A stretch of DNA of 32,000 nt from Candidatus Methylomirabilis oxygeniifera (GCA_000091165.1 FP565575.1:60001-92000), one strand, 5' to 3'. Positions 8,029-32,000 are shown, counted from the first letter of the stretch. Program-made: numbers and translations. The notes: generated by a model from the letters alone, not told the origin.

Positions 8029-8122
8029 TGTGACGTTCTTACGGACTCGATGGGGCGGGCATCGCATGGCCGGTGCAGGATGATTTCGCGACTCGGATGA
8101 CGTGATGGCTGGAAAGGAAAGG

Positions 8123-8815
8123 ATGCAGCAGGCGCGGGAGGCCAAGAACTATGTAGCAGGGCATCGGGAGCGGCTGCGGGCTCGCTACCGGCTGAGCGGC
8201 GAGGTTGCGCTCCAGGATTACGAGCTCTTGGAACTCCTCCTGACCTATGCTATTCCCAGACGCGACACCAAGCTGCTCGCCAAGAGGCTCCTGGAACGAT
8301 TCGGCACGCTTGCCCGCGTCGTTGAAGCTGAGCCGGCAGCCCTGGAAGCAATAGACGGGATGGGGCCACAAGCGGCGACTCTCATCTCCTTGATCCGGCC
8401 ACTCGCCACGCGGTTCCTGACGGAAGCGCCAGCGCCAAAGATCCTCCTCAGATCCACTGGCGACGCGGAGGCCTATTTTCAGGCCAAGCTGAAAGGTCTG
8501 CCGGAAGAGGAAGTCCATGTCGCGTTCGTGAATTCGAAAAACGCGGTGACGGCCACCGAGTGCCTGCAGCGCGGGACGGTCGATCAGTCAGTTGTGTACG
8601 TTAGGAAGGTGATCGAGCGCGCCTTGGTGCATAAGGCCAGCGGTTTTCTTCTGGCCCATAATCACCCCAGCGGTGACCCCACGCCGTCTCCCCAGGACCG
8701 GGAGATCACCCAGGCGTTGAAGACCGCCGCGGCGACCGTTGGTGTGCGCTTCCTCGACCACCTGGTCATCGGTGATGGTGCTCCGTTTAGCTTTAAGGCG
8801 GTAGGTCTGTTGTAG
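8123..8815 (+). CDS. radC: RadC-family JAB/MPN-domain protein (UPF0758)
   Basis: N-terminal HRERLRARY...LQDYELLELLL plus an HhH-like segment LEAIDGMGPQAA. The JAB motif is HNHPSGDPTPSPQD. ATG 8123 follows GGAAAGGAAAGG. GTG 8102 and ATG 8105 are alternatives. Confidence 0.85.
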   Translation: MQQAREAKNYVAGHRERLRARYRLSGEVALQDYELLELLLTYAIPRRDTKLLAKRLLERFGTLARVVEAEPAALEAIDGMGPQAATLISLIRPLATRFLTEAPAPKILLRSTGDAEAYFQAKLKGLPEEEVHVAFVNSKNAVTATECLQRGTVDQSVVYVRKVIERALVHKASGFLLAHNHPSGDPTPSPQDREITQALKTAAATVGVRFLDHLVIGDGAPFSFKAVGLL

Positions 8816-8839
8816 GTCTTACAAGGCTGGAGTTGGTAT

Positions 8840-9286
8840 TCAGGCACGCTGCAACGCCTCCAGATTGTGCTTCGCAATAGCAAGCTGCCAGTCGCGGCCA
8901 AAGAGACTGAAATCTTCCATCTGAAACACGGCCTCGTTTTTCAGATCAACATATTGACTAAAATCTCTAAAAAATACGGGGATACCTGCAACGATCGCGT
9001 TGTAGTGCAGCATCGGTTTGCCGAACGCTCGATCAATTGCAACCACGTTGACCTCTGAATGAAGCTCCTTGGACAGTCGTAATGCAATGTCGGTGATATG
9101 CTCGAACATCTCTTCTGCACCAGGGTGCTGTTGTGAAAACACCACGGCAATATCGATATCAGAATCCGGTCTTGGAGACCCTTTGGCCCACGAGCCGTAC
9201 AAGAAGGCCATCTCTATCCCATAGCGCCCCGCGTTGTTTCTAAAAAAATTCTCTAAATGGCTGATGATGTCCTGCCTGGGTTCCAC
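8840..9286 (-). CDS. MNT/MntA-like nucleotidyltransferase-domain protein (antitoxin-type, no HEPN partner present)
   Basis: [22 protein letters not shown] is the G-S-x(n)-D-x-D polymerase-beta nucleotidyltransferase motif. The GTG start follows GAGGAG. The segment is A/T-richer, and the gene is convergent with radC, 24 nt apart. Confidence 0.75.
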
Positions 9287-9472
9287 AAGATACTCCTCTA
9301 TCTCTTTCGGTTCTTCGGCTCAGCCTTTTTTAGCTGCAATATACGGAATGATATACTAAAATACCGTTTTTGTCATGGAGACCGACAGTATCCCCAAAAG
9401 CTGATCGGTAAGCGGCGATGGACTACATGGCCTAATGCCTCCTCGCGTGAACAGCGGATTGAGGAAGAGAGC

Positions 9473-15386: not shown

Positions 15387-16709
15387 ATGAATATTGCCGT
15401 AATCGGAACAGGATATGTGGGTCTTGTGACCGGGGTATGCTTTGCGGAGTTTGGTTTGCATGTGACCGCCGTAGATACGGATGAGGAGCGTATCGCTCGG
15501 TTAACCCAAGGAGAGGTCCTGATTTACGAGCCGCAGTTAGGCGAAATGCTGCGCAGGAATCTGCAACAAGGGCGCATTCAATTTACGACCGATACGGCGC
15601 GTGCAGTGAGAGACTCGCTCGTTCTCTTTATCGCTGTAGGCACCCCCTCTAAGGAGGATGGTTCTGCGGACCTCCAATACGTCGAGGAAGTCGCCAGAAC
15701 AGTAGCCAGGAACCTGAACGGCTATAAAGTGATCGTGACCAAGAGCACGGTCCCGGTTGGGACCGGACGGAGAATCCAGAGTATTATCCACGACGAGAAT
15801 GGAACCGGACCGCAGGGAGTGTTCGATGTCGCCTCCAACCCGGAATTTCTGCGCGAAGGCTCGGCGATTGAGGACTTCTTGCGACCCAACCGAGTCGTTA
15901 TTGGAGCAGATAGTCCGCAAGCCGTCGCCATCCTCCAGGATCTGTATCGCCCCCTGTATCTCATCGAGGTCCCCTTTGTGATCACGACGATTGAGACCGC
16001 CGAACTGATTAAGTACGCCTCAAACAGTTTCTTGGCCACAAAAGTGACTTTTATGAACGAGATGGCCAACCTCTGTGAGGCGTTGGGGGCGGATATTCAC
16101 GTTGTTGCTAAGGGGATGGGACTCGATCAGCGGATTGGTTCAAAGTTCTTGCATCCAGGTCCGGGATATGGCGGCTCCTGTTTCCCCAAGGACACGTGCG
16201 CGCTTGTCAATATTGCGAGGGAGCATGGATGCCGAGCCCGCGTGGTTGAGACCGTCATTGAAGTGAACGAACAGCAGAGGCTTCGGATGGTACAGAAGAT
16301 TCTCAGCGCCTTGGGGGCCTCTTCAGATCCCGACTCTCTGGAGGGGATCACTATCGGGGTACTCGGTTTAGCCTTCAAACCGAACACAGACGATGTCAGG
16401 CAGGCGCCTTCCCTCGTAATTATAGGCGAACTGGAGCGACTGGGAGCCAGGGTGCAGGCCTATGATCCTGCGGCGATGGAGCAGGCGCGGCGCATATTGC
16501 CTGGGGTCGATTATCGGACAGATGCGTACAGCGCAGCAGAGGGGGCGGATGTGTTGGTCCTGGCCACAGAATGGAATCTGTTTCGTAATCTTGACCTGGA
16601 GAAGATCAGGGGGCTGATGCGCCGCCCGATCTTAGTGGACCTGCGCAATGTCTATGAACCGGAGCGCGCACGCGTATTAGGATTCACGTATTACGGGGTT
16701 GGACGATAA
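15387..16709 (+). CDS. ugd: UDP-glucose 6-dehydrogenase
   Basis: Rossmann N-terminus IAVIGTGYVGLVTG, plus NPEFLREGSA, the catalytic-Cys region GYGGSCFPKD and GLAFKPNTDD. Confidence 0.88.
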   Translation: MNIAVIGTGYVGLVTGVCFAEFGLHVTAVDTDEERIARLTQGEVLIYEPQLGEMLRRNLQQGRIQFTTDTARAVRDSLVLFIAVGTPSKEDGSADLQYVEEVARTVARNLNGYKVIVTKSTVPVGTGRRIQSIIHDENGTGPQGVFDVASNPEFLREGSAIEDFLRPNRVVIGADSPQAVAILQDLYRPLYLIEVPFVITTIETAELIKYASNSFLATKVTFMNEMANLCEALGADIHVVAKGMGLDQRIGSKFLHPGPGYGGSCFPKDTCALVNIAREHGCRARVVETVIEVNEQQRLRMVQKILSALGASSDPDSLEGITIGVLGLAFKPNTDDVRQAPSLVIIGELERLGARVQAYDPAAMEQARRILPGVDYRTDAYSAAEGADVLVLATEWNLFRNLDLEKIRGLMRRPILVDLRNVYEPERARVLGFTYYGVGR

Positions 16710-16834: not shown

Positions 16835-17022
16835 CTCCCGCCATGGGCGGCGCGAACGCGCATGAGACCCAATCGGTTTGCTGAACAGCCACCTCCAGTC
16901 ACAAGTTATCTATCTAAGTCCATTGCATCTGTTGCATTCGGAAGTTCCTGAGAGCTACGACTATTATCGGAACGAGATCGCGTGCGAGACGACAGTCTAA
17001 CCATATTCGAGAGAGTCGATAG

Positions 17023-19963: not shown

Positions 19964-21118
19964 GTGGATATTCTGATCGTGGGAGTCAGTGCGCGCGGCT
20001 TGGCGGAGTCGGCGGTTCGGAGCGGATTGCGGCATCGGATCGTTGCGGTCGACTACTTCGGAGATTTCGATCTGGGACTGCTCTGCTCCCACCGCTCGAT
20101 TAAGACCGACCTGAACCTTCCGTACGATCCCCACCGCCTGATTACCGCATCGTCCGGCCTGACGTGGGACGCCCTTGCCTATGCCGCCAACCTGGAAAAC
20201 TTTCCATCAGTGATTGAGACAATAGCCGGAGGGAAGCCGATCCTGGGTAATGGCCCAGCGGTCCTGTCATCGGTGAGAGACCCCGCCAGATTCTTCGAGT
20301 TCCTTAGGCAAGCCGGCATTCCTGCACCGAAGATCGCCTTTGATTCTCAACCCCTCAACCTCCATTCCGACACCCTCTGGTTGCGCAAACCGCTTCGAAG
20401 CGGGGGTGGCCATGGAATCGCCGTTCACCTGCCTGAGGATCGCCTTGCCCCGGATTGTTTCCTGCAGGAGTACCTGGACGGCCTGCCATGTGGCGCGGTG
20501 TTCGCGGCGGATGGCTGGGATGCGTGTCTGCTGGGTGTCTCCGAGCAACTTATCGGTACGAAAGCGTTGGGGACGGACGGCTTTCACTACTGCGGGAGTA
20601 TTCTCGGACCTATAGAGGTGGGTCGGGTTGAATGGATCGACCTCGTCGAGCGCATAAGACAGATTGTTCGCGCCATTACCCGAGAGTTTCATCTTGTCGG
20701 CGTCAATGGAATCGATTTTATCTTCAAGGAGAAGGCTGTCTATCCGATTGAGGTCAACCCCCGTTACACCGCCTCGATGGAGCTGGTCGAACGAGCCTAC
20801 GGTGTGAATATCTTTAAGACACATCTCGACGCCTGCCGGGGGAGACTTCCCGACTTTGACCTCACCGCATACCTCGACGCAGGTTACTTCGGTAAGGCCA
20901 TTTGTTTTGCGTCGCGAGCCCTGATCTTCCATGATCCACGGCGGTGGTTCGATCGGGGTGCTCGAGATGTGCCGCTCGAAGGGGGGCAGATCGCGCAGGG
21001 GAAGCCGATTTGTACCGTCTTCTCGCGTGGACAAAGCCGATCGGCATGCTACAATCAGCTCACCTGTGCCGCCGCCGAAATAGAGCAAGGACGTTCGGAC
21101 GCTACGATAACGGTATGA
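19964..21118 (+). CDS. ATP-grasp superfamily ligase of unknown substrate
   Basis: 384 aa. LRKPLRSGGGHGIAV, FLQEYLDGLPCGAVF and GVNGIDFIFKEKAVYPIEVNPRYTAS are ATP-grasp core motifs. The GTG start follows AGAGGA. The stop overlaps the next start (ATGA). Confidence 0.75.
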   Translation: MDILIVGVSARGLAESAVRSGLRHRIVAVDYFGDFDLGLLCSHRSIKTDLNLPYDPHRLITASSGLTWDALAYAANLENFPSVIETIAGGKPILGNGPAVLSSVRDPARFFEFLRQAGIPAPKIAFDSQPLNLHSDTLWLRKPLRSGGGHGIAVHLPEDRLAPDCFLQEYLDGLPCGAVFAADGWDACLLGVSEQLIGTKALGTDGFHYCGSILGPIEVGRVEWIDLVERIRQIVRAITREFHLVGVNGIDFIFKEKAVYPIEVNPRYTASMELVERAYGVNIFKTHLDACRGRLPDFDLTAYLDAGYFGKAICFASRALIFHDPRRWFDRGARDVPLEGGQIAQGKPICTVFSRGQSRSACYNQLTCAAAEIEQGRSDATITV

Positions 21119-22422
21119 CAAAACAGACGACCAACGACCAGCGCCTTTTCGCATCATCGGTTACCCGCCGTTTTCTCAGACAGGACGGCCCGCTTCATAT
21201 GAAGGGTGGAGAGATGTGGATCGAAGGCCTGTCCTGCCGGGAAATGGCCAAGCCGCTCGGTACGCCGCTCCTGATTTATTCGTCGGCGCGCGTGCGCGAC
21301 AATATCGCAGCGGTTGCCGCCGCCGCCGAAGCGTCCCCATGGCCGGTCCGCATCCACTTTGCCCTGAAGGCATGCTATCTGGCCGGAGTGGTGTCGCTCC
21401 TGCAGCAGGCCGGGTTGAATGTCGAAGTGATGTCCGAATATGAATACGTGCTGGCGAGACGGATCGGTTTTTCGCCGAACCAGGTGATCGTCAACGGTCC
21501 GGCAAAGCGACCGGAATTTCTGGAGCGCGCAGTCATCGATGGGGTGGCGCTAATCAATGTCGAGTCGCTGTCGGAGATGACGTTTCTCCAGGGACTGGGC
21601 CAACGGCTTGGGAGGATCATTGAGGTGGGCATCAGGATCAACCCTCTCCTGTCGCAGCGCCTCCGGGGTCCGTTTACCCCTCCCGGATCAAAATTCGGCT
21701 TTGATGTGCCAAGCGGTGAGGCGGCGGCGGCGGTCAAGCGGATTGCACGATCACGATCCCTCTCGCTTCAGGCGGTGCATTGCCACGGCTACACCAGGCA
21801 ATACAGGCCGGATGCGCATCGGGCCCAGGTGGCCGCAGTCGTGAAGTTTCTTCGGGGAGTGGAAGCCGATCTTGGAATCCGGATTCCCGTCCTCGACTTC
21901 GGAGGCGGATTCGGCAGTCGCTATCTCATGGAGGCGCACGGGTGGACGTTCCAGCAGTTCATGCGTGAGATGTTGGATCCGCTTGCCGGCCTGCCTGGCG
22001 ACCGGCAGGTCATCATTGAGCCCGGGCGATATCTGGTCAACGACACTGCCGCATGCCTGACGAGCGTATTGACGTGCAAGCGGACAGTTCACAGACGCTG
22101 GGTCCTGGTGGATACGGGTCGGCATATCTTACCGCCTCGAGAGAACGCCGAATATGTTGTCATGCCGTGTCAGGCTTCACCGGGGCGAACCGTGTATCAT
22201 GTCGGCGATTTTCTCTGTGTGCCGTCGGAGCCTGTTCCGCTCTCGGTAGTCGGCGGGGTGATGAGGCCTGGCGATCTGCTCGCGGTGTTCAACGCCGGAG
22301 CCTACACCTTTTCTATGGCCCAGAACTTTGGAGAGCCGATCCCCAATGCGATCCTGGTCGACAAGGGTGAGTGGCGTTGGTTGTTTAAGAAGCGATCCGT
22401 TGAAGAGCAATTCATGAGATAA
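21115..22422 (+). CDS. PLP-dependent decarboxylase, Orn/DAP/Arg decarboxylase family (fold type III)
   Basis: IHFALKACY (PLP lysine), MSEYEYVLARRIGF, VNGPAKR, DFGGGFG, EPGRYLV and AGAYTFSMAQNF. The usual C-E-S-G-D region reads CVPSEP. The track ORF from 20944 is a 5' extension overlapping the ATP-grasp gene. Confidence 0.8.
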   Translation: MTKQTTNDQRLFASSVTRRFLRQDGPLHMKGGEMWIEGLSCREMAKPLGTPLLIYSSARVRDNIAAVAAAAEASPWPVRIHFALKACYLAGVVSLLQQAGLNVEVMSEYEYVLARRIGFSPNQVIVNGPAKRPEFLERAVIDGVALINVESLSEMTFLQGLGQRLGRIIEVGIRINPLLSQRLRGPFTPPGSKFGFDVPSGEAAAAVKRIARSRSLSLQAVHCHGYTRQYRPDAHRAQVAAVVKFLRGVEADLGIRIPVLDFGGGFGSRYLMEAHGWTFQQFMREMLDPLAGLPGDRQVIIEPGRYLVNDTAACLTSVLTCKRTVHRRWVLVDTGRHILPPRENAEYVVMPCQASPGRTVYHVGDFLCVPSEPVPLSVVGGVMRPGDLLAVFNAGAYTFSMAQNFGEPIPNAILVDKGEWRWLFKKRSVEEQFMR

Positions 22423-22678
22423 GGTAGCAGGGATGGTCGCGCCGAGAGGCGGAAGCGTGACGACTTCTGTCGTACCTGAACATCCATGGGCCGATCGATC
22501 GCCTACACAAGATCCGAAAGCGTCCGATTTTTGACGTTATGGGGCAAATCACCCACGTCAGGGTGTTATGCCCCCATTCCCCACCTTGTCGCAGTGAGTT
22601 GGTCTGGCAGTACCCCACATTCATACCCTGCTCACCCAACAAATACAATGAGTTACATTGTTTAGCTCCGAGAGCGGT

Positions 22679-22694
22679 TGGCACTGAATGTGCA
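22679..22694 (+). promoter_or_regulatory. sigma54 (-24/-12) promoter-like element TGGCAC-tgaat-GTGCA upstream of the first TonB-dependent receptor
   Basis: Read directly. The GG (22680-81) to GC (22692-93) spacing equals the TGGCAC-N5-TTGCW consensus, with one mismatch in the -12 box. It lies 70 nt upstream of ATG 22764. Confidence 0.5.
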
Positions 22695-22763
22695 CACTTC
22701 ATCCCCTTTTCACGATAGTTCTGTATCCTTACAGGAGTCGGAATAGTCCCCATTGGAGGAGGA

Positions 22764-24941
22764 ATGACGTTGGCAGGCAGAGCTGAACTTGGGTTACGTA
22801 GAATCATTATTGCTGTTGTCTGGCTTGTCATTATCGGTGCCATCGGACGATTCGCTGCAGTTGCGTGGGGGGCCGACGCCGACTCGCCACCGCCCACTAT
22901 TTCCGAGGAGGCGGTTCGTCTCGATCCGGTGGTCGTCTCTGCCGGCCGGATTGAGCAGCGGCTACGGGACGTCCCGGCCAATGTGACGGTCATCACCCGA
23001 GAGGAGATCGCGCAATCGCCGGCCAGGACGGTAGACGATCTGCTGCGGCAGATCCCCGGGTTCAGTCTGTTTCGTCGCAGCAGCAGCCTGGTCACCCATC
23101 CAACGACGCAGGGGGTGTCGCTTCGCGGGATCGGGCCAAGCGGCGTGAGTCGGACGCTGGTATTGCTGGATGGAGTTCCGCTCAACGATCCGTTCGGCGG
23201 CTGGGTCTACTGGAGCAAGGTGCCGCTGGAAAGTGTCGAGCAGATTGAGGTGGCGCGTGGCGGCGGGTCCGGCGTCTGGGGCAACTATGCGCTGGGTGGC
23301 GTCATCAACATTATCACTAAGCGGCCGGAGGCGCGGGTTGCCCAACTCAAGGTTGATGGCGGCACGCGCAATACCGTCGATACCGACCTGCTGGTGAGTC
23401 ACGTGACCGGACCCTGGGGTATCTCTCTTGAAGGCAGCTTCTTTGATACTGACGGCTATAAGATCGTCAAGAAGAGTCAGCGGGGGACGATCGATGTCGA
23501 TGCCGACTCCAGTCATAAGACCTTTAATGGTCGACTGGAATACACGCCTTCCCCGACCTCATCGCTCTTTCTCGCCGGTACCTTCTTTCGGGAGGATCGC
23601 GGCAACGGGACCCCGCTTCAAAACAATGAGACCGAGACCGGCTATGTAGCAACCGGAGGCCGGATGAAGACCGCCGATGGCAGCGACTGGCAACTCACGG
23701 CCTTCTCTCACCTGCAGACGTTTAACAGTACCTTCACCTCTGCGTCTGCCGATCGGAACTCGGAAACCCCCGCACTTGATCAGTTCGACGTCCCCTCAAC
23801 GGATGCCGGGGCCAACCTGCAGTGGTCGAAGCGGATCCTCCAGTCACATCTGCTCACGGCGGGAACCGATGTGAGATGGATCGACGGAGAAACGAACGAA
23901 TACTTCACATTCAATCAAACCTTAAAAGATTTTACCGGACGACGGAAGGCTGGAGGGGAGCAGTTCTTGGCAGGCGCCTACATTCAGGATATTTTCACCC
24001 CTGCGCCCGGATGGCAGATTACTGTTGCCGGCCGGTTCGACTCGTGGCAGAGTTTCAATGCTTCACGCGTTCAGCGGAACAAACAAACCGGGGCGATCAC
24101 TCGGAATAGTCAGTTTGACGATCGGGACGAATTTGCCTTCAGTCCCAAGGTGGCGCTCTTGTACCATGCCACCGATCAACTCTCGCTGCGAAGCTCGTTC
24201 TACAAAGGGTTTCGAGCGCCGACCATCAATGAGCAGTTTCGGCCATTCAGAGTCCGGAACGACATTACTGAAGCCAACGAAAAGCTTGATCCGGAACGGC
24301 TGATTGGAGGGGAGGTCGGGTTCGACTATACCATGATGCGTAACCTTCTCGGTCGATTTACCGCCTTTTGGAACGAGGTCAAGGACCCTATTGTCAATGT
24401 CACCAAGGGGATCGGTCAAGGAGCCGTCATGGAGCCTTGTGGCTTTGTCCCGGTCGGCGGTGTCTGTCGCCAGCGGGACAACCTGGACCGGACGCGGATC
24501 AGGGGGATCGAGGCCGAACTCGAATATCATCCGCTGCCGCGCTGGGCCGTTTCAGGCAGTTATCTGTATAACCATACTGAGGTCTTGAGCGCCAAGAACC
24601 AACCGGAATTAGAGGGAAAATGGATTGCTCAGGTCCCGAGACATCAGTTCACTTTGAAGTTGGGCTACACCAATCCGTCCCTCGTGAACTTTTCCATTCA
24701 GGGGCGGTTTATCGAGGATCAGTTCGAGGATGACCTCAACACGCTGAAGCTCGGCGACTACTTCGTAGTGGACCTTATGGTGTGGCGGCCGATCCCCCTC
24801 CCGAAGGTGTCTGCAGGAGAAATCTTCTTTGCGGTAGAGAACCTCTTCGACCGGACGTACGAGGTTGCCAAGACGGCCGACGGCATCGTTACCACCGGCA
24901 CCCCTGTGCTGGTCCACGGCGGCGTAAGGGTACGGTTTTGA
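22764..24941 (+). CDS. TonB-dependent outer-membrane receptor (no N-terminal signalling extension)
   Basis: Signal peptide, TonB-box-like LDPVVVSA, and plug motifs VTVITREEI, DLLRQIPG, SLRGIG and LLDGVPLND. A long beta-barrel ends in the aromatic terminus ...VRVRF. Confidence 0.9.
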   Translation: MTLAGRAELGLRRIIIAVVWLVIIGAIGRFAAVAWGADADSPPPTISEEAVRLDPVVVSAGRIEQRLRDVPANVTVITREEIAQSPARTVDDLLRQIPGFSLFRRSSSLVTHPTTQGVSLRGIGPSGVSRTLVLLDGVPLNDPFGGWVYWSKVPLESVEQIEVARGGGSGVWGNYALGGVINIITKRPEARVAQLKVDGGTRNTVDTDLLVSHVTGPWGISLEGSFFDTDGYKIVKKSQRGTIDVDADSSHKTFNGRLEYTPSPTSSLFLAGTFFREDRGNGTPLQNNETETGYVATGGRMKTADGSDWQLTAFSHLQTFNSTFTSASADRNSETPALDQFDVPSTDAGANLQWSKRILQSHLLTAGTDVRWIDGETNEYFTFNQTLKDFTGRRKAGGEQFLAGAYIQDIFTPAPGWQITVAGRFDSWQSFNASRVQRNKQTGAITRNSQFDDRDEFAFSPKVALLYHATDQLSLRSSFYKGFRAPTINEQFRPFRVRNDITEANEKLDPERLIGGEVGFDYTMMRNLLGRFTAFWNEVKDPIVNVTKGIGQGAVMEPCGFVPVGGVCRQRDNLDRTRIRGIEAELEYHPLPRWAVSGSYLYNHTEVLSAKNQPELEGKWIAQVPRHQFTLKLGYTNPSLVNFSIQGRFIEDQFEDDLNTLKLGDYFVVDLMVWRPIPLPKVSAGEIFFAVENLFDRTYEVAKTADGIVTTGTPVLVHGGVRVRF

Positions 24942-24946
24942 AGGAA

Positions 24947-24998
24947 GCTCTCAGCGTTCAGCTTTCAGTAGGAGCGTTTTGGCTGAGAGCCGAAAGCT
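24947..24998 (+). other. intercistronic structured element with two interleaved stems between the receptor and kinase genes
   Basis: GCTCTCAGC (24947-55) pairs with GCTGAGAGC (24982-90). AGCTTTC (24960-66) pairs with GAAAGCT (24992-98). All read directly. Confidence 0.3.
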
Positions 24999-25009
24999 AG
25001 TCCCATTCC

Positions 25010-26488
25010 ATGTTGATCCGCACAAAACTCCACATCGGGTATCTGGTCATTTTTACCCTGGTGGTCTGCATCGGGCTTGTCATGGTGTGGGCGCTTCGGA
25101 GCTGGGAGGCGGCGGTACAGGATCTGACCGTCTCCCATGCGCAAGGCCTGAGGGCCGAGCGGCTGCGAGGCGATTTGTATCGGCAGATCAAGGAGATCCT
25201 CGATCGGTTCGTGAGTGGGGATCGATCGGCTCGAGGGGAGTTCGAGAGCCTGGGAGTGATGGTGGAGGGGGAGTTGGCGGACCTTCAACGGTACTCCCAG
25301 TTGAAAGCCGAGCAGGATCGGATTCGGGAACTCGAGGCGGCGCACCGGCAGGTCACGAAGCTCGTGAGAGAGATTTTTGAACTCCTCGAGAACGGGGCTC
25401 GTGAGCAGGCCATCCAGCGGGTCGAACGGGAGCTGGAACAGGTTGCGTTTACACGCCAGGACGAACAGATTGATCGGTTACGGGCCTACTACGACGCAGC
25501 CGCACAGCAGTCGATGCAACGGACCCGCGCCGTCGCGACTCAGGGGGAACTACTGGCCGGTGTTGTCGTGCTGCTTGCACTCGCGTGGGGAGCCGGGTTG
25601 CTGTTTGGAACGCAACTATGGTTAGTCAAGCCTTTGCAAGCTATCGGTCGTGCGACCGCGATCATCAGCACCGGGGAACTGACTCATCGCCTTCATGTCA
25701 GCTCACAGGATGAGTTGGGTGATCTGGCGAACTCGATCAATCGCATGGCCCAGTCGCTGAAGGGAATTCAGGAGCGCGTGCTTCAAGCCGAACGATTAGC
25801 GGCGGCCGGTGAACTCTCTGCCTACGTTGCACACAATATCCGTAACCCATTGGCGAGTATCCGGTCTACTGCTCAGGCAGCCCTCACAGGATCGGACCAG
25901 TCCGCAGCGATTCGGCTCACGCTGCAGGGCGTTGTGGAGAGTGTGGATCGCCTGAACCAATGGGTACGTCATTTTCTCTTCGCCTTAAAACCGATTACGC
26001 CGACTCTTGCCTCGGCCGATTTAAACCGGGTGGTGGCACAGGCACTGGATGTTGTCCGCCCGACCATCGAAGGGAAGCGGATCAGCGTAGGGTTGAGCCT
26101 TGCCGAATCGCTGCCGCTCGTCCCGCTTGACGAAGGGTACTTTGAACAAGCCCTCATTGCCCTGCTGACCAATGCCTGCGAGGCGACGTCCCAGGAGGGG
26201 CGGATTGAAATCGCCTCCAGATTGATTTGCGACGGGGAGCGGCCGACAGGTGTGGCTGTTGAGCTGACCGACAATGGCGCAGGAATCCCCCCTGAGATGA
26301 TCGAGAAGGTCTTGACTCCATACTTTACGACGAAGAGTGACGGCGTGGGACTTGGCCTGACCATGGCCCAGAAGGTTGCCAGCGCTCACGGCGGGAGCCT
26401 CACCGTGTCGAACCGACAGGAGGGTGGGGCCGTCGTCCGGATCCTCCTTCCGCTGCCCCATTCTCAAGCCGCCGAACGCGATGGCTAG
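25010..26488 (+). CDS. sensor histidine kinase (2 TM, helical periplasmic sensor, HAMP, HisKA, HATPase_c)
   Basis: TM1 IGYLVIFTLVVCIGLVMVWAL and TM2 LLAGVVVLLALAWGAGLLF. HAMP is KPLQAIGRATAIISTGELTHRL...DELGDLANSINRMA, the H-box is AHNIRNPLASI, and the G-boxes are DNGAGIP/GVGLGL. Confidence 0.88.
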   Translation: MLIRTKLHIGYLVIFTLVVCIGLVMVWALRSWEAAVQDLTVSHAQGLRAERLRGDLYRQIKEILDRFVSGDRSARGEFESLGVMVEGELADLQRYSQLKAEQDRIRELEAAHRQVTKLVREIFELLENGAREQAIQRVERELEQVAFTRQDEQIDRLRAYYDAAAQQSMQRTRAVATQGELLAGVVVLLALAWGAGLLFGTQLWLVKPLQAIGRATAIISTGELTHRLHVSSQDELGDLANSINRMAQSLKGIQERVLQAERLAAAGELSAYVAHNIRNPLASIRSTAQAALTGSDQSAAIRLTLQGVVESVDRLNQWVRHFLFALKPITPTLASADLNRVVAQALDVVRPTIEGKRISVGLSLAESLPLVPLDEGYFEQALIALLTNACEATSQEGRIEIASRLICDGERPTGVAVELTDNGAGIPPEMIEKVLTPYFTTKSDGVGLGLTMAQKVASAHGGSLTVSNRQEGGAVVRILLPLPHSQAAERDG

Positions 26489-27899
26489 AATCCTGATCAT
26501 TGACGACGAGGTCGTATTTGCTCGTTCCGTGGCGCACACCCTCGGCAGACATGGCTACGAGTGCAGAAGTCTTTCGAGCGCCGAGGAGGGGATCGCATCC
26601 CTTGAGGAGGAGCGGCCCGATCTGATCCTGCTGGACATCAGGCTGGCCGGCATGAGTGGGCTGGAGGCGCTGAGGAGGATCGTGAACCTCGACGGAAGCA
26701 TCGTCGTCATCATTATGACCGCCTATAGCAGTGTCGAGAGCGCCGTAGCCGCCATGAAGGATGGCGCATACGACTATATCCAGAAGCCGATCGATCACGA
26801 TGAGCTCACCTTTGTGATCGAAAAGGCGCTGGAGACCCGTCGCCTGAAGGAACGTCTCTCGTACTTTCAACGTAAAGAGATTCAGCAGGCCCACCAGTGC
26901 GAGATCATCGGTGTCTCCCCAAAGATGAAGCAGGCCATCGAGTTGATCGAGCGGATCGCACAGTTCGAGCCTAGGCCTGCGGGCGAGCTGCCCACAGTAC
27001 TCCTACTGGGAGAGACCGGGACAGGAAAGGATCTTGCGGCGCGGGCAATTCATCGTCGAGGCAGCCTCGCCGGACAGCCGTTCGTCGAGATTGACTGTAC
27101 ATCGATTCCGAAGGATCTCGCAGAGGCGGAGCTGTTCGGGTACGAGAAGGGCGCCTTCACGGGTGCCGCGGTTGCGAAGCCAGGTTTGATCGAGGCGGCG
27201 GACGGCGGGACGCTCTTTCTGGACGAGATCGGGGAACTGAGCCTGGATCTTCAGTCGAAACTGCTGAAGGCGATCGAACGAAGGCAGGTCCGACGGCTGG
27301 GGAGTCTCAGAGAGCGGAAGATCAATGTCCGCATCATTGCGGCTACCAACCGCAACCTCGAGGCGGAAGTCGGGACCGGCGCATTTCGCCAGGATCTGTA
27401 CTACCGTCTGAAAGTTCTTACCGTGAAGTTGCCGCCTTTGCGGGAACGCGATGATGACGTGATCCTGTTGGCCAACTACTTTCTGGAGCGACTGACCCAC
27501 AAGTATTCGCTCTGCGCAAGGCGATTTTCAGGTTCCGCCCTCCAAGCTCTTAGAAAGTACCGCTGGCCCGGCAATGTTCGCGAACTGGCGCACGTGGTCG
27601 AGCGGGTGCTTTTGGTCTGCGATGAAGAAGAGATTGGTCCCTCGGCTCTTGGTCTCGATACCTCCTTCCCTGTTATTGCGAGTCGAAGACAAAACAGTCC
27701 TGCCGGCGCCGATGAGGCGCTGGAGATACAGTTTCCCGAGCGGGGTATCGATCTGGAGGAGATCGAGCAACAATTAATCAGGCGAGCGCTTGATCTGACA
27801 GATGGCAATGTCACGGAAGCCGCCCGAAAACTGCACATCGGCCGCGAGGCGCTCCGCTATCGCATCCAGAAGTACGGGATCATTCGTCCTGTCTCGTGA
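26481..27899 (+). CDS. sigma54-dependent (NtrC-family) response regulator / enhancer-binding protein
   Basis: REC domain (ILIIDDE...LILLDIRL). The AAA+ domain has GETGTGKD, GAFTGA (EKGAFTGA) and LFLDEIGEL. The C-terminal Fis-type HTH is GNVTEAARKLHIGREALRYRIQKYGI. ATG 26481 overlaps the kinase stop by 8 nt. Confidence 0.92.
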   Translation: MARILIIDDEVVFARSVAHTLGRHGYECRSLSSAEEGIASLEEERPDLILLDIRLAGMSGLEALRRIVNLDGSIVVIIMTAYSSVESAVAAMKDGAYDYIQKPIDHDELTFVIEKALETRRLKERLSYFQRKEIQQAHQCEIIGVSPKMKQAIELIERIAQFEPRPAGELPTVLLLGETGTGKDLAARAIHRRGSLAGQPFVEIDCTSIPKDLAEAELFGYEKGAFTGAAVAKPGLIEAADGGTLFLDEIGELSLDLQSKLLKAIERRQVRRLGSLRERKINVRIIAATNRNLEAEVGTGAFRQDLYYRLKVLTVKLPPLRERDDDVILLANYFLERLTHKYSLCARRFSGSALQALRKYRWPGNVRELAHVVERVLLVCDEEEIGPSALGLDTSFPVIASRRQNSPAGADEALEIQFPERGIDLEEIEQQLIRRALDLTDGNVTEAARKLHIGREALRYRIQKYGIIRPVS

Positions 27900-27931
27900 G
27901 TCGAGCGAAGCAAGACAGCCTGCAATTGGTC

Positions 27932-27962
27932 GGTTGAAATCAACCACCGGTTGAATTCAACC
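27932..27962. promoter_or_regulatory. two tandem 14-bp palindromes (GGTTGAAATCAACC and GGTTGAATTCAACC), a candidate enhancer (UAS) for a sigma54 activator
   Basis: Read directly at 27932-27945 and 27949-27962. Centres are 17 bp apart, about 90-120 bp upstream of the sigma54 element at 28050, starting 33 nt after the activator gene stop. Confidence 0.55.
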
Positions 27963-28049
27963 AGCTCCCGTTACTCAGAATTTGCTTGCAGCATCAGACT
28001 CACCCCCGTCATTTCAAGCGCTTAGCCGTTTCGTGGTTCTACAGCTACC

Positions 28050-28065
28050 CGGCACGCCCATTGCT
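28050..28065 (+). promoter_or_regulatory. sigma54 (-24/-12) promoter cGGCACG-ccca-TTGCT upstream of the second TonB-dependent receptor
   Basis: Near-perfect match to TGGCACG-N4-TTGCW with exact spacing, 70 nt upstream of ATG 28135. An IHF-core-like TTTCAAGCGCTTA (28012-28024) lies between it and the palindromes. Confidence 0.7.
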
Positions 28066-28134
28066 AGGCACGAGTAGCGCAGTTCCGAGTGGAGGGGTAC
28101 ACAACGTGCTGCTTGGACCCAGAGGAGATAGCCA

Positions 28135-30372
28135 ATGGCGTGGAATCGGGGGAAGGCTGCTTACGTGCTGGTCGGATTAATTGTCGGCCTTGGTGTTCCA
28201 CATTCACATGCCCAGGAGACTGGAGCGCCGCCGGACATCGTCCCGCTTCCGGAGATTCTGGTGACGGCGCCATCTCGTCTGCCCGATATTCCTCTTTCGC
28301 CGGCTGAGATCCCCGCCTCCGTTCAGGTGATTACGGGGGAGGAGATCGCCCGCTCAGAGGCGCTGACGCTTCAGGATGTCATGAAGCAGTTGCCCGGCGT
28401 ACACCTCAATGACCAACAGGGCAACTCCTATCAGTTCGACATGTCCTTCCGCGGTTTCACCGGGAGCCCCGTGACCGGCATCCCCCAGGGGATCAGCGTC
28501 TTTGTGGACGGGGTTCGGGTAAATGAACCTGCCGTGGAAGAGATCAACTTCGACCTGCTGCCGCTTGACCAGGTGGAGCGGATTGAACTGATCCGCGGCC
28601 CTTCTGCCATCTTTGGGAGGAACACGCTGGCCGGCTCTCTGAACATCATCACGAAGCGGGGCGGTCCGGAACGGCGAGTTGAGTTGGAGATGGAAGGGGG
28701 TAGTTTCGGCCGTCGGAAGGGCGGAGGCTCCATGAGTGGCACCGTCGGAGCGCTCGACTACTACGTGGCCGGAAGTCAGTTCGATGAGACCGGCTGGCGG
28801 GAGCAATCCGACAGCCGTCTGGCCCAGGCGTTTGCGAAGCTCGGTTTCCGTCAGGACGGGACCGACATCAGTGTCTCTTACCAGTTTCAGAATAACAGGA
28901 TCTTACAGGCCGGAACCTTACCGGAAAGCGTCCTGATGAAGGATCGGGCCCAAAACTTCACCGGGGGAGATTTTTTCAATCCGAATCTCCATCAGGCGAT
29001 CCTGAACGCTCACCAGCGCTTGGGCGGCGGTTTCTCCCTGGCCCTGAACGGCTACGTCAGGAGTTTCGAAACCGAGCAGTACAACGTCAGCCTGATCAGT
29101 GAAAACACCCGTCTGTTCAACGATACCATGTCGGGGGGTGGAACGCTCCAACTGGTTCACGAGGGGCGCTTCTGGGGGCGTAAGAACCTGCTGACTGCAG
29201 GGATCGAATATAACCGCTACGATGTCGATATCCGGGTCTCCGAGGAGCATAATGAACGGAGTCTCAAGAAATGTACCGACGCGGCGATTGCCGCAGGGGA
29301 AGATCCGGTCGAGGCATGTCCTCGTTCTTCACTTGAGGACGTCCTCATTGATAAGCAGGATACTGTCGGAGCCTACATTCAGGACACGGCCGAACTGGGG
29401 CGAGGTCTTCTTGTGCTGGGCGATAGCCTCCATCTGACGGGAGCCGCCAGGTTCGACTTTGTGCAGCACAAGATTACAGATCGGAGTCCGGAGGATCCGG
29501 GTGAAGCATCAGGGAAGGCGTCCTATCGACGAGTACTCCCACGGGCGGGGATCAATTATAACCTCTCTGATAACCACGGGCTCTACTTCTCCTACTCACA
29601 AGGATTTCGGACGCCCGCCTTTCTGGAACTGACCTGCGCCGACCCTGAGTCGCCTTGCGTGGGTCTGCAAGCCGGCGTGGCGCCGGACACCGGCTTCAGG
29701 AAGCTCAGCCCTGTCAGAGTCCACAACTACGAATTGGGTTTCAGGACTCGTCCCGTGTCATGGTTAGAGGGAAACTTCTCCCTCTACCGGACCGATGTCC
29801 GGGATGACATCTTCTCTGTTTCTGATTCGGGCGAGCTCACTGTCTTTTTCCAGAACATCGGCAATACCCGACGGCAGGGGCTCGAAGTCGGCCTGCGCGG
29901 GATCTATCAGAACCTTGTGGAGACCTACGTCAATTATACGTTGACCCGCGCGACGTTTCGGGATGAAGTCGAACTGGCCTCTCCCAGGACGCCTGGTATT
30001 ACCCAGCACGTAAAAGCAGGGGATACCATTCCCTCGACCCCGAACCATCGGGTGAATGCGGGCATTCGTTACCATCTGTATAAGTGGCTGGCGCTTTCCC
30101 TCGACTTGCACTATGTCGGTTCGCAGTACCTGCGCGGCGACGAAGCGAATACTCAGTCGAAATTGAACTCGTACGTCGTCATAAACGCTGGAATCGACTT
30201 GCACTGGAAGCACCTCAAAGGCTTTGTGAAGATCAACAATTTGGGGAACAACAAGTATGAGACTTTTGGGACCTTTGCGCCTAACGCCAAGGTTGCCGGA
30301 GACCCAATCGAACGCTTCCTGAACCCCGCCCAACCGATCAATGTGTTAGTCGGCGCCAGTTACCGATTCTAG
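28135..30372 (+). CDS. TonB-dependent outer-membrane receptor (second copy, different subfamily)
   Basis: Signal peptide ending HSHAQE, TonB-box-like EILVTAP, and plug motifs VQVITGEEI, DVMKQLPGV, SFRGF, VFVDGVRVNE and IELIRGPSA. The barrel ends ...GASYRF. The RBS is GAGGAG. Confidence 0.9.
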   Translation: MAWNRGKAAYVLVGLIVGLGVPHSHAQETGAPPDIVPLPEILVTAPSRLPDIPLSPAEIPASVQVITGEEIARSEALTLQDVMKQLPGVHLNDQQGNSYQFDMSFRGFTGSPVTGIPQGISVFVDGVRVNEPAVEEINFDLLPLDQVERIELIRGPSAIFGRNTLAGSLNIITKRGGPERRVELEMEGGSFGRRKGGGSMSGTVGALDYYVAGSQFDETGWREQSDSRLAQAFAKLGFRQDGTDISVSYQFQNNRILQAGTLPESVLMKDRAQNFTGGDFFNPNLHQAILNAHQRLGGGFSLALNGYVRSFETEQYNVSLISENTRLFNDTMSGGGTLQLVHEGRFWGRKNLLTAGIEYNRYDVDIRVSEEHNERSLKKCTDAAIAAGEDPVEACPRSSLEDVLIDKQDTVGAYIQDTAELGRGLLVLGDSLHLTGAARFDFVQHKITDRSPEDPGEASGKASYRRVLPRAGINYNLSDNHGLYFSYSQGFRTPAFLELTCADPESPCVGLQAGVAPDTGFRKLSPVRVHNYELGFRTRPVSWLEGNFSLYRTDVRDDIFSVSDSGELTVFFQNIGNTRRQGLEVGLRGIYQNLVETYVNYTLTRATFRDEVELASPRTPGITQHVKAGDTIPSTPNHRVNAGIRYHLYKWLALSLDLHYVGSQYLRGDEANTQSKLNSYVVINAGIDLHWKHLKGFVKINNLGNNKYETFGTFAPNAKVAGDPIERFLNPAQPINVLVGASYRF

Positions 30373-30646
30373 ACGTGTAGGTATCCTTGATCTGCTCATC
30401 ACATTGCGGAAAAAATAGTGTGCAGCAGTTAGGCCTTTCGACTGAAGACTGAAGGAGAACCACCTAACAGCCTTCAGCCTATCGACCTTCTGCCTTCTGT
30501 GGGGGCGGCGCACGGTATCGGTGGTGGGGGCTGTTACGTGAGGTGGGTGTAATTTCACACACACCGACGTGCCTCTGATGGTTTCCCGGCATCGAATCGG
30601 CCGCAAATGCTTGAATAACCAGACGATTGGCAGATTGGGCAGCGGC

Positions 30647-30662
30647 TGGAATAGTCCTTGCA
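30647..30662 (+). promoter_or_regulatory. weaker sigma54-like element TGGAAT-agtcc-TTGCA upstream of the second kinase gene
   Basis: The GG to GC spacing is correct and the -12 box is perfect, but the -24 box matches only TGG. It lies 95 nt upstream of ATG 30757. Confidence 0.35.
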
Positions 30663-30688
30663 CACCTTACCACCTGTTTCACGCTCAT

Positions 30689-30743
30689 CCCCGCTCCCCC
30701 CAGCGGCTTGAGTCCTGGCACTTAGGCGCGAAGGGGAGCGGGG
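30689..30743 (+). other. 11-bp GC-rich inverted repeat (CCCCGCTCCCC ... GGGGAGCGGGG) forming a long stem 14 nt upstream of the kinase start codon
   Basis: Read directly: arms at 30689-30699 and 30733-30743 with a 33-nt loop. The 3' arm contains the only purine-rich SD-like stretch (AGGGGAG). Confidence 0.35.
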
Positions 30744-30756
30744 ACCCTCACCACTC

Positions 30757-32000
30757 ATGCAGATCAGACGGAAGATCGAACTCGCCTTTGGCGTGATTCT
30801 ATGCCTGCTGCTTCTCACCGCAGGGCAAGGATTGTGGATGTTCATCCACACAAAATCCGCGCTTGGCGAATTGCGTCAGGCGTTTTCTGATGTTCTGCTC
30901 CTTGATGATCTGAAGGTGTTGATCTACCGACAGGCGAAAGAGATCCCGGACTACCTGACCGGACACGATCCCGATGCCAAAGAGGAATTTCGGAGTTATG
31001 CGGCGCAGATTGCGATGCGATTTCACGAGAGCGACAGGTTAGCCGGTACGCCCGTACAGGCGCGCTACCTTGGGGATCTCCGGCGGGCCTACGCCGCGCA
31101 TGCCCGTTTAGCGGATCGCATCTTCCGAGCCTATGACAGCAAACAGTACCGACGCGCCCTTGGCCTGATGGAGCATGATGTGGAGAACATTGCGCTCCCC
31201 GCGCTCGATCAGGCCGTCGCGTCCCTTCATCGGGCGCTGTATGCCTCGTCCTTCGAGCGTGTTATGGCGCAGGCTCAGTCGTTCGAACGAACGGCCCAGA
31301 TGGTGAGTCTCCTCGCCGTACTGACCACCTTTGGGGCCGGGCTCTTGATCTTCCTATGGCTGTCCCGCGGATTGGTCCGTCCGATCAATGCGCTGGTGGA
31401 GGCGACCCGTGAAGTCGGACAGGGGAATCTCGACATCCAAGGCCTGCCGGTCTCACGTGACGAGATTGGCGAGCTCGCGTCTGCATTCTCAGGTATGGTG
31501 CAGCGGATCAAGCATTTTCAAACCCAAATCGTCGAGACCGAACAGATGGCGTCCATCGGCGCCACGGCGGTCGCGGTGGCCCATGGGCTGCGGAACCCCC
31601 TTGCAAGCGTTCGAGCCTTGGCACAAGTCGCTCTTGTTGAGCATGAATCGTTCCCGGCTGTCAATGAGAGCCTTCACGAGATCATTGCTGAGGTCGATCG
31701 GCTGAATGCGCGCATCAGCCATCTGCTGACCTTTGCGGTCCCTGCCCGGTTGCACCCCGTGTCGGCAGATCTCAATGACGTGATTGAGCGCGTCGTCGCC
31801 GATTTCCAGCAGATCAAGCCGCAGCAGGTCGTCTTCGCCCTCCACCTTGACCCCGGATTGCCTTCCGTGCAACTCGATACGGTGCACATGAAGGAGGTGC
31901 TTCGAGAAATCGTCCTGAACGCCCTTGAGGCGATGCCGGACGGCGGCGACGTCCGCGTGGCAACGAAAAGGGGTGAGGGGCCGGAGGGGCGGCCCATACT
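30757..32000 (+). CDS. sensor histidine kinase, paralogue of the 25010-26488 kinase (3'-truncated by the window edge)
   Basis: Not in the ORF track because it has no stop in the window. My translation is MQIRRKIELAFGVILCLLLLTAGQGLWMF... It has a second TM MVSLLAVLTTFGAGLLIFLWL, HAMP RPINALVEATREVGQGNLD...DEIGELASAFSGM, H-box AHGLRNPLASV, and the start of the ATPase domain (LREIVLNALEAM). Confidence 0.85.
   Translation, partial: MQIRRKIELAFGVILCLLLLTAGQGLWMFIHTKSALGELRQAFSDVLLLDDLKVLIYRQAKEIPDYLTGHDPDAKEEFRSYAAQIAMRFHESDRLAGTPVQARYLGDLRRAYAAHARLADRIFRAYDSKQYRRALGLMEHDVENIALPALDQAVASLHRALYASSFERVMAQAQSFERTAQMVSLLAVLTTFGAGLLIFLWLSRGLVRPINALVEATREVGQGNLDIQGLPVSRDEIGELASAFSGMVQRIKHFQTQIVETEQMASIGATAVAVAHGLRNPLASVRALAQVALVEHESFPAVNESLHEIIAEVDRLNARISHLLTFAVPARLHPVSADLNDVIERVVADFQQIKPQQVVFALHLDPGLPSVQLDTVHMKEVLREIVLNALEAMPDGGDVRVATKRGEGPEGRPI

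Follow-up and report, generated by a model that had tools for sequence, protein, structure and literature searches.

Gene content of the locus

We analysed positions 19964-32000 of a 32,000-nucleotide stretch of DNA (FP565575.1:60001-92000; the window) from Candidatus Methylomirabilis oxyfera, a nitrite-dependent methane oxidiser of the phylum NC10, in which genes for two TonB-dependent receptors stand beside genes for two-component systems of the sigma-54 type. The span begins with a cassette of two genes, one for a ligase of 384 amino acids (19964-21118; Pfam ATP-grasp_3) and one for a pyridoxal phosphate (PLP)-dependent decarboxylase of 435 amino acids with the ornithine/diaminopimelate/arginine decarboxylase fold (21115-22422; Pfam Orn_Arg_deC_N); the decarboxylase ATG overlaps the ATP-grasp stop by 4 nt, so that the two genes are translationally coupled. 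These are followed by receptor 1 (725 amino acids, 22764-24941; Plug and barrel, Cir/BtuB-like), sensor histidine kinase 1 (492 amino acids, 25010-26488), the NtrC-type sigma-54 activator 1 (472 amino acids, 26481-27899), whose first 8 nt are shared with the kinase 1 gene, receptor 2 (745 amino acids, 28135-30372; Plug and TonB_dep_Rec_b-barrel) and sensor histidine kinase 2 (30757-32000; 489 amino acids in full), which is interrupted by the window end. All of these genes lie on the + strand, as do almost all genes of the window. On extended contigs, activator 2, a sigma-54 activator of 458 amino acids, begins after a gap of 3 nt from kinase 2. Receptor 2 is encoded identically on several public M. 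oxyfera assemblies. Kinase 1 and kinase 2 are 31% identical over their full length, the two activators 43% and the two receptors 25%, and to judge from their sequences the receptor, kinase and activator modules of the span are old paralogues.

An earlier interpretation made from the DNA alone (the sequence-only reading) had given the same gene order on one strand and had predicted a second activator past the window, and both are borne out by the domain calls and the contig extension. It had also joined the whole span into one locus that makes a small molecule, imports it through both receptors and senses it. From this model, our analysis retains the sigma-54-dependent import and the periplasmic sensing and discards the production step and the equal standing of the two receptor triads. 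On balance, we judge it probable that the span comprises two unrelated things, a cassette operon and a sigma-54-dependent import system.

Sigma-54-type promoters and a conserved enhancer-like site upstream of receptor 2

We searched for sigma-54 promoters with the pattern TGGCAC-N5-TTGCW, with GG and GC doublets ten bases apart. The whole window contains two matches with at most one mismatch, compared to 0.94 expected, a count that alone is not above chance. Both matches lie exactly 85 nt before a receptor ATG on the + strand: TGGCACtgaatGTGCA (22679-22694) upstream of receptor 1 and CGGCACgcccaTTGCT (28050-28065) upstream of receptor 2. By our estimate, the chance that both would fall in two short coding-strand upstream zones is of the order of 1e-5. 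The two sites are significant because of their placement and their conservation in relatives, not because of their number.

Upstream of the receptor 2 element lie tandem 14-bp palindromes, GGTTGAAATCAACC (27932-27945) and GGTTGAATTCAACC (27949-27962), which are separated by 3 nt and together form the presumed upstream activating sequence of activator 1 (27932-27962, + strand). An integration host factor (IHF)-like site, ATTTCAAGCGCTTA (28011-28024, + strand), was read from the sequence between the palindromes and the promoter. We compared this region in 19 related loci with receptor 2, from genomes and metagenomes, in which the identity of the receptor goes down to 62%. The -24/-12 element of receptor 2 is CGGCAY-N5-TTGCA in all 19 loci. 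The GGTTGAnnTCAACC palindrome site is also found in all 19, with both copies in 18 and, under the pattern used, one copy in L094. Measured from the first palindrome, the promoter lies 116-119 bp away in 18 loci and 132 bp away in one. An IHF-like block, AATTCAAGnnGTTA, is kept at the same place in related loci, and the remaining spacer diverges; IHF may bind the M. oxyfera site ATTTCAAGCGCTTA. The sequence-only reading had proposed sigma-54 control of receptor 2 through enhancer-like palindromes, and this layout is retained in each of the 19 related loci compared. The region upstream of receptor 2 is thereby well supported, as far as sequence can tell, as a promoter of the classic enhancer-dependent sigma-54 anatomy, and activator 1, encoded next to the palindromes, would be the protein that binds them.

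The other regulatory regions are less uniform. Of 16 related loci, 9 have an element with at most two mismatches upstream of receptor 1, between -82 and -98, and the palindrome is absent there. An imperfect inverted repeat, GGGGCAAATCACCC/GGGTGTTATGCCCC with the core TCACCCAC (22541-22574, + strand), lies about 130 nt upstream of the receptor 1 promoter and is a weak candidate for an activator site; blocks of TCACCC(A/G)C and ATTCCCC upstream of receptor 1 recur in L008 and L019. A weaker sigma-54-type element, TGGAATagtccTTGCA (30647-30662, + strand), with two mismatches and intact GG and GC cores, is located 110 nt before the kinase 2 ATG. Between this element and the ATG, the kinase 2 leader contains a stem-loop (30688-30744, + strand; -42.4 kcal/mol, z = -3.6) with no U-tract, whose 3′ arm masks the sole GGAG-like stretch. 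No sigma-54 element was found before kinase 1. We also considered a common activator site for the four M. oxyfera sigma-54 regions (receptor 1, receptor 2, kinase 2 and the mxaF gene described below) and rejected it, as the palindrome is confined to the receptor 2 region; a word resembling TCACCCNCGTCA is present in three of the four and is not conserved in relatives. A simple terminator scan of the intergenic gaps found nothing, and a stem-loop between receptor 1 and kinase 1 was rejected as a terminator, being no stabler than shuffled sequence (z = -1.6). A scan for sigma-70 promoters gave weak consensus matches only, none of them decisive.

Some spacers in Methylomirabilis loci carry additional features. 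In a metagenome-assembled genome of Methylomirabilis sp. (L007 6670-9269), a decayed receptor copy with frame shifts stands between the conserved palindromes and sigma-54 promoter, on one side, and an intact receptor 2, on the other; receptor 1 and kinase 1 of this locus are also split in the gene calls, so that these features could reflect either real decay or assembly errors. Short palindromic repeats, such as GTCATTGCGAGCGA...GCAATC and GTCATTCCCGCGAAAGCGGGAATCCAG, recur between genes (L002 17540-17650 and 17840-17940; between the receptor 2 promoter and ATG in L017 and L018; upstream of receptor 1 in L057 and L007). Some of these lie inside regulatory spacers and resemble miniature mobile elements.

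Conservation of the arrangement

Species-representative genomes were searched with a receptor 2 profile and then by tblastn with the proteins of the locus, and metagenomes were scanned with the kinase sensor domain. At the level of Methylomirabilis, the gene order is ATP-grasp, decarboxylase, receptor 1 where present, kinase 1, activator 1 and receptor 2, and the metagenome scan returned the same order. Receptor 1 is missing in four loci (L018, L087, L088 and L094), and only M. oxyfera strains yielded the kinase 2/activator 2 pair. What the loci share is a unit of kinase 1, activator 1 and receptor 2, in most cases with TonB behind it, which heads a cluster with the methanol dehydrogenase gene xoxF. 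The arrangement is thus conserved in relatives, from both genomes and metagenomes, as the sequence-only reading required; its picture of two equivalent triads did not hold, given the confinement of the second pair to M. oxyfera strains and the loss of receptor 1 in several relatives. Receptor 2 homologues at about 50% identity, from Rokubacteria, Myxococcaceae and Gemmatimonadota, have no adjacent kinase or activator. As far as these searches see, the receptor-kinase-activator arrangement appears to be a trait of the Methylomirabilis lineage.

Sensor kinases and activators

Kinase 1 consists of a transmembrane segment, a four-helix-bundle periplasmic domain (4HB_MCP), a second transmembrane segment, and HAMP, HisKA and HATPase domains. 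In both kinases, hydrophobic segments at about residues 5-32 and 179-206 flank a loop of about 150 residues, and because these two segments enclose the loop, the sensors are predicted to face the periplasm, in line with what the sequence-only reading had supposed. The cytoplasmic parts resemble AtoS and ZraS. The sensor domain of kinase 1 is 63-92% conserved across orthologues, and its family is rare: 86 cluster representatives were found at E<=1e-3 among 1.84 billion. Activator 1 has Response_reg (REC), Sigma54_activat (AAA+) and HTH_8 domains, with the Walker A motif GETGTGK, the GAFTGA loop and the Walker B motif LFLDEI, which place it in the NtrC family. Activator 2 has the same domains and belongs to this family with a variant loop, GAFTDA.

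In some M. oxyfera strains, receptor 1 and kinase 1 have been separated. One strain (L001 361-6856) carries a ResIII helicase, a DUF3800 protein and an N6/N4 methyltransferase, an island of the restriction-modification type, between the two genes, and in L005 (1-620, M. oxyfera) a pair of PIN-domain genes stands immediately before kinase 1 at the contig end. Because such strain insertions separate receptor 1 from kinase 1, transcription reading through from receptor 1 would not be needed to express kinase 1 and activator 1. The kinase family also has distant members. In L102 (3357-10336) and L103 (1226-8205), with sensor identities of 41% and 29%, they stand beside genes for creatininase-family and luciferase-like oxidoreductase proteins, and L102 has two divergent kinase/activator pairs; because these neighbours differ, the kinase/activator family seems to have other targets in other organisms. 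Another distant pair (29% identity for the kinase and 40% for the activator) follows xoxF-xoxJ in L100, and a further distant kinase-family member adjoins a TonB gene in L096.

The two receptors

Both receptors have Plug and TonB_dep_Rec_b-barrel domains, with the TonB-box-like sequences DPVVVSA and PEILVTA behind signal peptides. Neither has an N-terminal signalling extension of the STN/FecR type, the Plug domain beginning at residue 57-67; they are therefore TonB-dependent transporters and not transducers of the extracytoplasmic function (ECF) sigma type. A Fur-box scan allowing up to three mismatches found no match in the window, and an Rfam scan of the whole window found no family over threshold, the cobalamin riboswitch included. 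The sequence-only reading had seen no ECF-type extension, Fur box or B12 riboswitch, and these scans agree with it.

The closest solved structures to receptor 1 are Cir and BtuB. For receptor 2, the best specific match is the NCBIfam model of the pyrroloquinoline quinone (PQQ) importer PqqU (NF041535), at 168 bits compared to 61 bits for receptor 1 and an equivalog cut-off of 1200. PqqU is also its best PDB sequence match (E 1e-33), at an identity of about 22-27%, and the best structural match of its predicted model (mean confidence, pLDDT, of 71): PqqU 9c4o has a template modelling score of 0.81, TonB transporters overall have scores of 0.7-0.8, and the lead over the siderophore receptors FhuA and FecA is small. 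The PqqU signature consists of Y99 (or F/W), R304 and R365 of the E. coli protein (PMC12124388). We aligned a profile of 13 receptor 2 relatives against E. coli PqqU and found that Y99, which lies in the well-aligned plug, corresponds to a near-invariant T114, while R304, R365 and R536 correspond to F311, E374 and L568 and K274 to a gap, in loops that align with low confidence. Because the defining residues of PqqU are not conserved, we did not file receptor 2 as a PqqU, even though PqqU is its closest relative by three measures; receptor 2 could carry PQQ through a different pocket. The receptor 2 family also has two cysteine pairs in predicted extracellular loops (residues 379-394 and 501-508), one of which holds the near-invariant LELTCAxPxxPCVGLQAGVAPD; PqqU lacks any equivalent of these loops, and the model represents them poorly. 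Good scores were obtained for both receptors with the general subfamily models of siderophore and haem receptors, and the source annotations of homologues read 'Fe transport'. One receptor that is seemingly fused to REC, P0053, was set aside as a probable gene-call merger with an upstream regulator, as it lacks a nucleotide record and its REC domain precedes the plug.

Methanol dehydrogenase genes beside the locus

About 8 kb past receptor 2 lies a PQQ-dehydrogenase operon (mxaF), which also holds genes of the mxaJ, cytochrome c, small-subunit and moxR types; the intervening DNA contains kinase 2, activator 2, a vapBC module and an integrase fragment. The vapBC module lies between direct repeats of about 90 bp (L002 about 15870-15970 and 16920-17005, outside the window), which suggests that it was inserted as a cassette. 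M. oxyfera has no PQQ biosynthesis in its genome, and the supercluster of its three methanol dehydrogenases begins at damo_0112 (PMC6094997), which is this mxaF gene. A near-consensus sigma-54 element, TGGCATcccgcTTGCT (L002 18325-18340; equivalent to about 36459-36474 in window numbering, outside the window), is located about 60 nt before an alternative mxaF start and 185 nt before the annotated ATG. M. oxyfera is the only lineage in our set with a calcium-type mxa operon.

In relatives, receptor 2 is followed by TonB, a secreted repeat protein of about 400 amino acids, an FG-GAP protein of about 700 amino acids, sometimes a protein of about 590 amino acids, and then xoxF-xoxJ. The secreted protein (L012 5584-6819; L016 12481-13704; L008 13794-14990) has about 14 repeats of about 24 residues, of which 4-6 contain DxDxDGxxD (EF-hand-like) loops, that is, sites of the calcium/lanthanide type; it is possibly a new calcium- or lanthanide-binding protein. 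A database search with it for an M. oxyfera copy returned matches at 25-43% identity only and did not recover the known orthologues, and hence was uninformative. The FG-GAP repeat protein has a weakly FlgT_C-like N-terminal part (L016 13986-16181; L012 6863-9094; L008 15479-17482), and the conserved protein of about 590 amino acids, present in four loci (L016 16395-18179), has no Pfam match. In L012 (232-780) and L085 (11350-11892), a secreted protein with two PepSY domains, a pI of 4.6-4.9 and 35-37 acidic residues adjoins receptor 2. Its architecture and charge appear to match those of LanP (lanpepsy), the lanthanide-binding protein of Methylobacillus flagellatus (PMC9988556).

The ATP-grasp/decarboxylase cassette

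The cassette is separated from receptor 1 by a 341-nt spacer with a separate promoter, and neither a sigma-54 element nor the palindrome was found upstream of it. Homologues of the ATP-grasp protein in other phyla (41-43% identity) sit between genes for methylene-tetrahydromethanopterin (H4MPT) dehydrogenase (Mpt_N/mtdB type) or mch and fhc/FTR genes, which is the gene position of OrfY. OrfY, now called MyfA, is a glutamate ligase of the ATP-grasp type that takes part in methylofuran biosynthesis (PMC8141765). In M. oxyfera, the ATP-grasp gene follows pntAB, and on the L077 contig, which carries L008, the ATP-grasp/decarboxylase pair stands behind pntAB, with an mfnB-type gene (4HFCP synthase), an amino-acid-kinase-family (AA_kinase) gene, possibly mfnE-like, and another ATP-grasp gene just upstream of pntAB. 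The ATP-grasp protein is thus probably, from its sequence and gene context, a MyfA/OrfY- or MfnD-like ligase of one-carbon (C1)-carrier coenzyme biosynthesis that lies outside the import system. The decarboxylase scores 209.6 bits on the lysA model TIGR01048, below the cut-off of 297.9, and we rejected its assignment as LysA; it is nonetheless a member of the fold-type III decarboxylase family and could provide tyramine or a like amine for the C1-carrier coenzyme. On this sequence evidence, the most likely role of the cassette is the biosynthesis of a C1-carrier coenzyme of the methylofuran or methanofuran type.

Because its homologues are found in H4MPT/formyltransferase-hydrolase islands, we regard the cassette as a neighbour of the receptors by synteny only and not as the source of their ligand. 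The production step of the sequence-only reading is lost on the same gene context, together with the separate promoter of receptor 1 and the lack of a sigma-54 element before the cassette.

Genomic surroundings

Upstream of the span, the window contains, in order, a Clp/Hsl-type ATPase gene, argB, argD, argF, an islet, argG and argH, followed by a lipoprotein gene, selB, a UDP-glucose dehydrogenase gene and pntAA-AB-B. The islet (window 4300-9300), which splits argB-argD-argF from argG-argH, contains toxin-antitoxin, PIN, AAA and RadC genes, among them a DUF5615/PIN-type module and genes for a 372-amino-acid PIN_12 protein and an AAA_14-DUF4143 ATPase, with a nucleotidyltransferase on the minus strand. 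With a G+C content as low as 0.49 in the stretch at 5-6 kb, the islet was probably inserted, as a mobile or a defence element.

Discussion

From the gene content, the anatomy and conservation of the receptor 2 promoter and enhancer, and the genomic association with methanol dehydrogenase genes, we infer which activator acts on which site, in which direction the regulation runs and what is imported. A basal level of receptor would admit the cargo into the periplasm, where the four-helix-bundle domain of kinase 1 would detect it, directly or via a binding protein, and kinase 1 would phosphorylate activator 1. Activator 1 would then oligomerise on the tandem palindromes and, with bending of the DNA at the IHF-like site, would remodel the sigma-54 polymerase 117 bp downstream and turn on receptor 2. 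In relatives, the same switch would also turn on the TonB gene behind receptor 2, and receptor 1 would be driven by its own sigma-54 promoter. Induction is probably by the substrate once it is in the periplasm, by analogy to PfeSR/PirSR and the Bacteroides hybrid kinases; induction triggered by starvation is equally compatible with the sequence.

The cargo is most likely a scarce cofactor of the periplasmic methanol dehydrogenase, because the conserved core heads the xoxF cluster. We prefer a lanthanide, free or chelated, over PQQ, as a tentative first choice, because of the neighbours with calcium/lanthanide-type sites, the linkage to xoxF and the precedent in M. flagellatus. In M. oxyfera, the presence of kinase 2 and activator 2 together with the sigma-54 promoter of mxaF suggests a switch between the dehydrogenase types, in which, speculatively, the second pair may control the calcium-type mxaF operon. 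An unrelated metal chelate is given about the same weight as PQQ, and the remaining probability falls to cargoes of other kinds. For receptor 1, which is Cir/BtuB-like, we have no specific lead. The fullest form of the proposal is a possibility that we put forward with caution: an NC10 import module in which a rare sensor kinase and a sigma-54 activator drive a receptor related to PqqU and distinct from it, for a lanthanide or PQQ, accompanied in relatives by TonB, DxDxDG, FG-GAP and PepSY proteins and, in M. oxyfera, by a duplicated pair that serves as an mxaF switch.

Several observations weigh against this proposal. Receptor 2 homologues at about 50% identity lack not only the kinase and activator but mostly also a nearby dehydrogenase, and more distant members of the kinase family have genes of the creatininase and luciferase types as neighbours instead of receptors. 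The secreted repeat protein and the FG-GAP and PepSY proteins come from relatives and not from the M. oxyfera sequence that we examined. Synteny with xoxF is shown for the Methylomirabilis lineage only, in which the order of the genes may simply have been inherited, and no sigma-54 element was found before xoxF in relatives. Activator 2 has GAFTDA in place of GAFTGA, and its competence with sigma-54 is putative; the presence of rpoN is deduced from the two activators and the conserved -24/-12 elements. We found no paper linking Methylomirabilis and rpoN, and a literature search for the guessed locus tags damo_0102-0107 found nothing.

Three other explanations of the locus were considered. In one, receptor 2 is a divergent PQQ importer, and kinase 1 senses periplasmic PQQ or the status of the apo-dehydrogenase and induces the receptor. 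PqqU is the best specific family model, PDB sequence and structural match of receptor 2, M. oxyfera has no PQQ biosynthesis (PMC6094997), receptor 2 stands at the head of a cluster of PQQ enzymes, and two Rokubacteria homologues (L042 and L051) are flanked by PQQ-dehydrogenase-like genes. The loss of the PqqU signature (Thr, Phe, Glu and Leu in place of Y99, R304, R365 and R536, with a gap at K274), a family score far under the cut-off and a small structural margin in a moderate model nevertheless make this explanation improbable in our judgement; an invariant Arg two residues ahead of the R304 column and an Arg beside that of R365 would to some extent allow for a site that has shifted. M. oxyfera has high demands for copper and iron, and the receptors may alternatively be ordinary metal-chelate receptors (iron, copper, zinc or other) under a two-component system, with the proximity to dehydrogenase genes being a meaningless inherited order. 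The good scores of both receptors on siderophore and haem models, the 'Fe transport' annotations, the unrelated contexts of the homologues at about 50% identity and the AtoS/ZraS-like cytoplasmic parts of the kinases all fit this explanation. It does not account for the lack of a Fur box in the window, the LanP-like PepSY neighbour in two loci or the distant kinase/activator pair beside xoxFJ, nor for the linkage of TonB, DxDxDG-repeat, FG-GAP and xoxF genes, which survives in relatives although toxin-antitoxin modules and other insertions have remodelled the DNA from receptor 2 to the dehydrogenase genes, and we consider it unlikely, on a par with the PQQ importer.

The third explanation is that of the sequence-only reading, in which the cassette makes a small chelator; after export and loading, the chelator would return through both receptors and be detected by the kinases. 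Some siderophore pathways, for example that of vibrioferrin, include both an ATP-grasp enzyme and a PLP-dependent decarboxylase, the decarboxylase of the cassette has a weak match (52 bits) to the rhizoferrin decarboxylase FslC, and wherever a Methylomirabilis-level locus covers the region, the cassette lies directly before receptor 1 or kinase 1. Synteny of this kind is shared equally by the upstream pntB, however, and the span contains neither an exporter nor a synthetase of the non-ribosomal peptide (NRPS) or NRPS-independent siderophore (NIS) type. With the OrfY/MyfA-like position of the ATP-grasp homologues, the methanofuran-type genes just before pntAB on the L077 contig and the lack of a sigma-54 element or palindrome before the cassette, we rejected the chelator pathway as a role of the cassette and regard this explanation as very improbable.

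To our knowledge, no lanthanide uptake genes have been assigned in the phylum NC10. The locus supplies candidates for cofactor acquisition in this phylum, namely one receptor family, one sensor domain and one 31-bp enhancer, to which the relatives add three secreted proteins with calcium/lanthanide-type binding motifs. The most telling context, which the sequence-only reading lacked, is that the locus heads a methanol dehydrogenase cluster in an organism that is unable to make PQQ. If the proposal is correct, sigma-54 enhancer control would reach TonB-dependent import, so far hinted at in one betaproteobacterial methylotroph only, and control of mxaF by kinase 2 and activator 2 would be a sigma-54-based version of the 'lanthanide switch'. 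If the cargo is an ordinary metal chelate, the finding shrinks to an unusual regulatory wiring of a common transporter.

The nearest known parallel is in M. flagellatus, where the lanthanum-induced TonB receptor Mfla_1253 is followed by the lanthanum-induced sigma-54 regulator Mfla_1254, and another sigma-54 regulator, Mfla_0343, adjoins xoxF (Hemmann et al. 2023, PMC9988556). Both organisms are methylotrophs with a TonB receptor beside a sigma-54 activator, a predicted sigma-54 promoter and a link to XoxF, and the PepSY protein LanP is part of the M. flagellatus response. In M. flagellatus, however, the regulator lies behind the receptor and no adjacent kinase has been described, whereas in M. 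oxyfera a kinase and an activator precede the receptor that they would control. M. flagellatus belongs to the Betaproteobacteria, and its link comes from proteomics and deletion phenotypes; the NC10 system is known from sequence and is likened to it by gene arrangement.

Among solved structures, that of PqqU (YncD) of E. coli (PDB 6v81 and 9c4o; PMC12124388) is the nearest to receptor 2, and of the specific family models that of PqqU fits receptor 2 best; M. oxyfera is a PQQ auxotroph with periplasmic PQQ enzymes. Receptor 2 differs from it in that Y99, R304 and R365 are not kept and in its extra cysteine-containing extracellular loops, and in the part of the E. coli genome that we examined, no two-component system adjoins pqqU. 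Through its genomic association with xoxF, receptor 2 also resembles LutH/LanA, the TonB receptor that Methylorubrum extorquens and Methylotuvimicrobium buryatense need for the oxidation of methanol with lanthanides; in Methylocella, homologues of LutH, LutA and LutB adjoin xoxF1 (PMC9291206). The lut cluster differs in carrying an ABC transporter and lanmodulin. Its regulation differs as well, since lut clusters are under MxbDM, MxcQE or MxaY rather than sigma-54 activators.

Adjacent periplasm-sensing kinases are known for PfeS/PfeR-PfeA and PirS/PirR-PirA of Pseudomonas aeruginosa and for the Bacteroides hybrid systems with SusC-like receptors. As proposed for M. oxyfera, the adjacent kinase in these systems detects the imported substrate and induces the TonB receptor, with no ECF sigma factor or signalling extension; their outputs, however, are of the OmpR or AraC type on promoters of the sigma-70 family, whereas that of M. 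oxyfera is an NtrC-type AAA+ activator that would act on sigma-54 from a remote enhancer. With these systems and M. flagellatus (PMC9988556) as precedents, the statement of the sequence-only reading that no characterised TonB system is organised in this way was too strong. NtrBC, DctBD, ZraSR and AtoSC share with the M. oxyfera locus the kinase and activator domains, tandem dyads about 100-150 bp upstream, a GG-N10-GC promoter and the IHF-assisted looping that is predicted for M. oxyfera. They differ in that the M. oxyfera target is an outer-membrane TonB receptor, compared to an inner-membrane transporter or an enzyme, and the periplasmic sensor domain of kinase 1 belongs to a separate, small family. 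Taken together, the regulatory design as proposed here varies on kinds already known, the control of TonB receptors by two-component systems and two-component systems of the sigma-54 type, with one loosely characterised precedent in a methylotroph.

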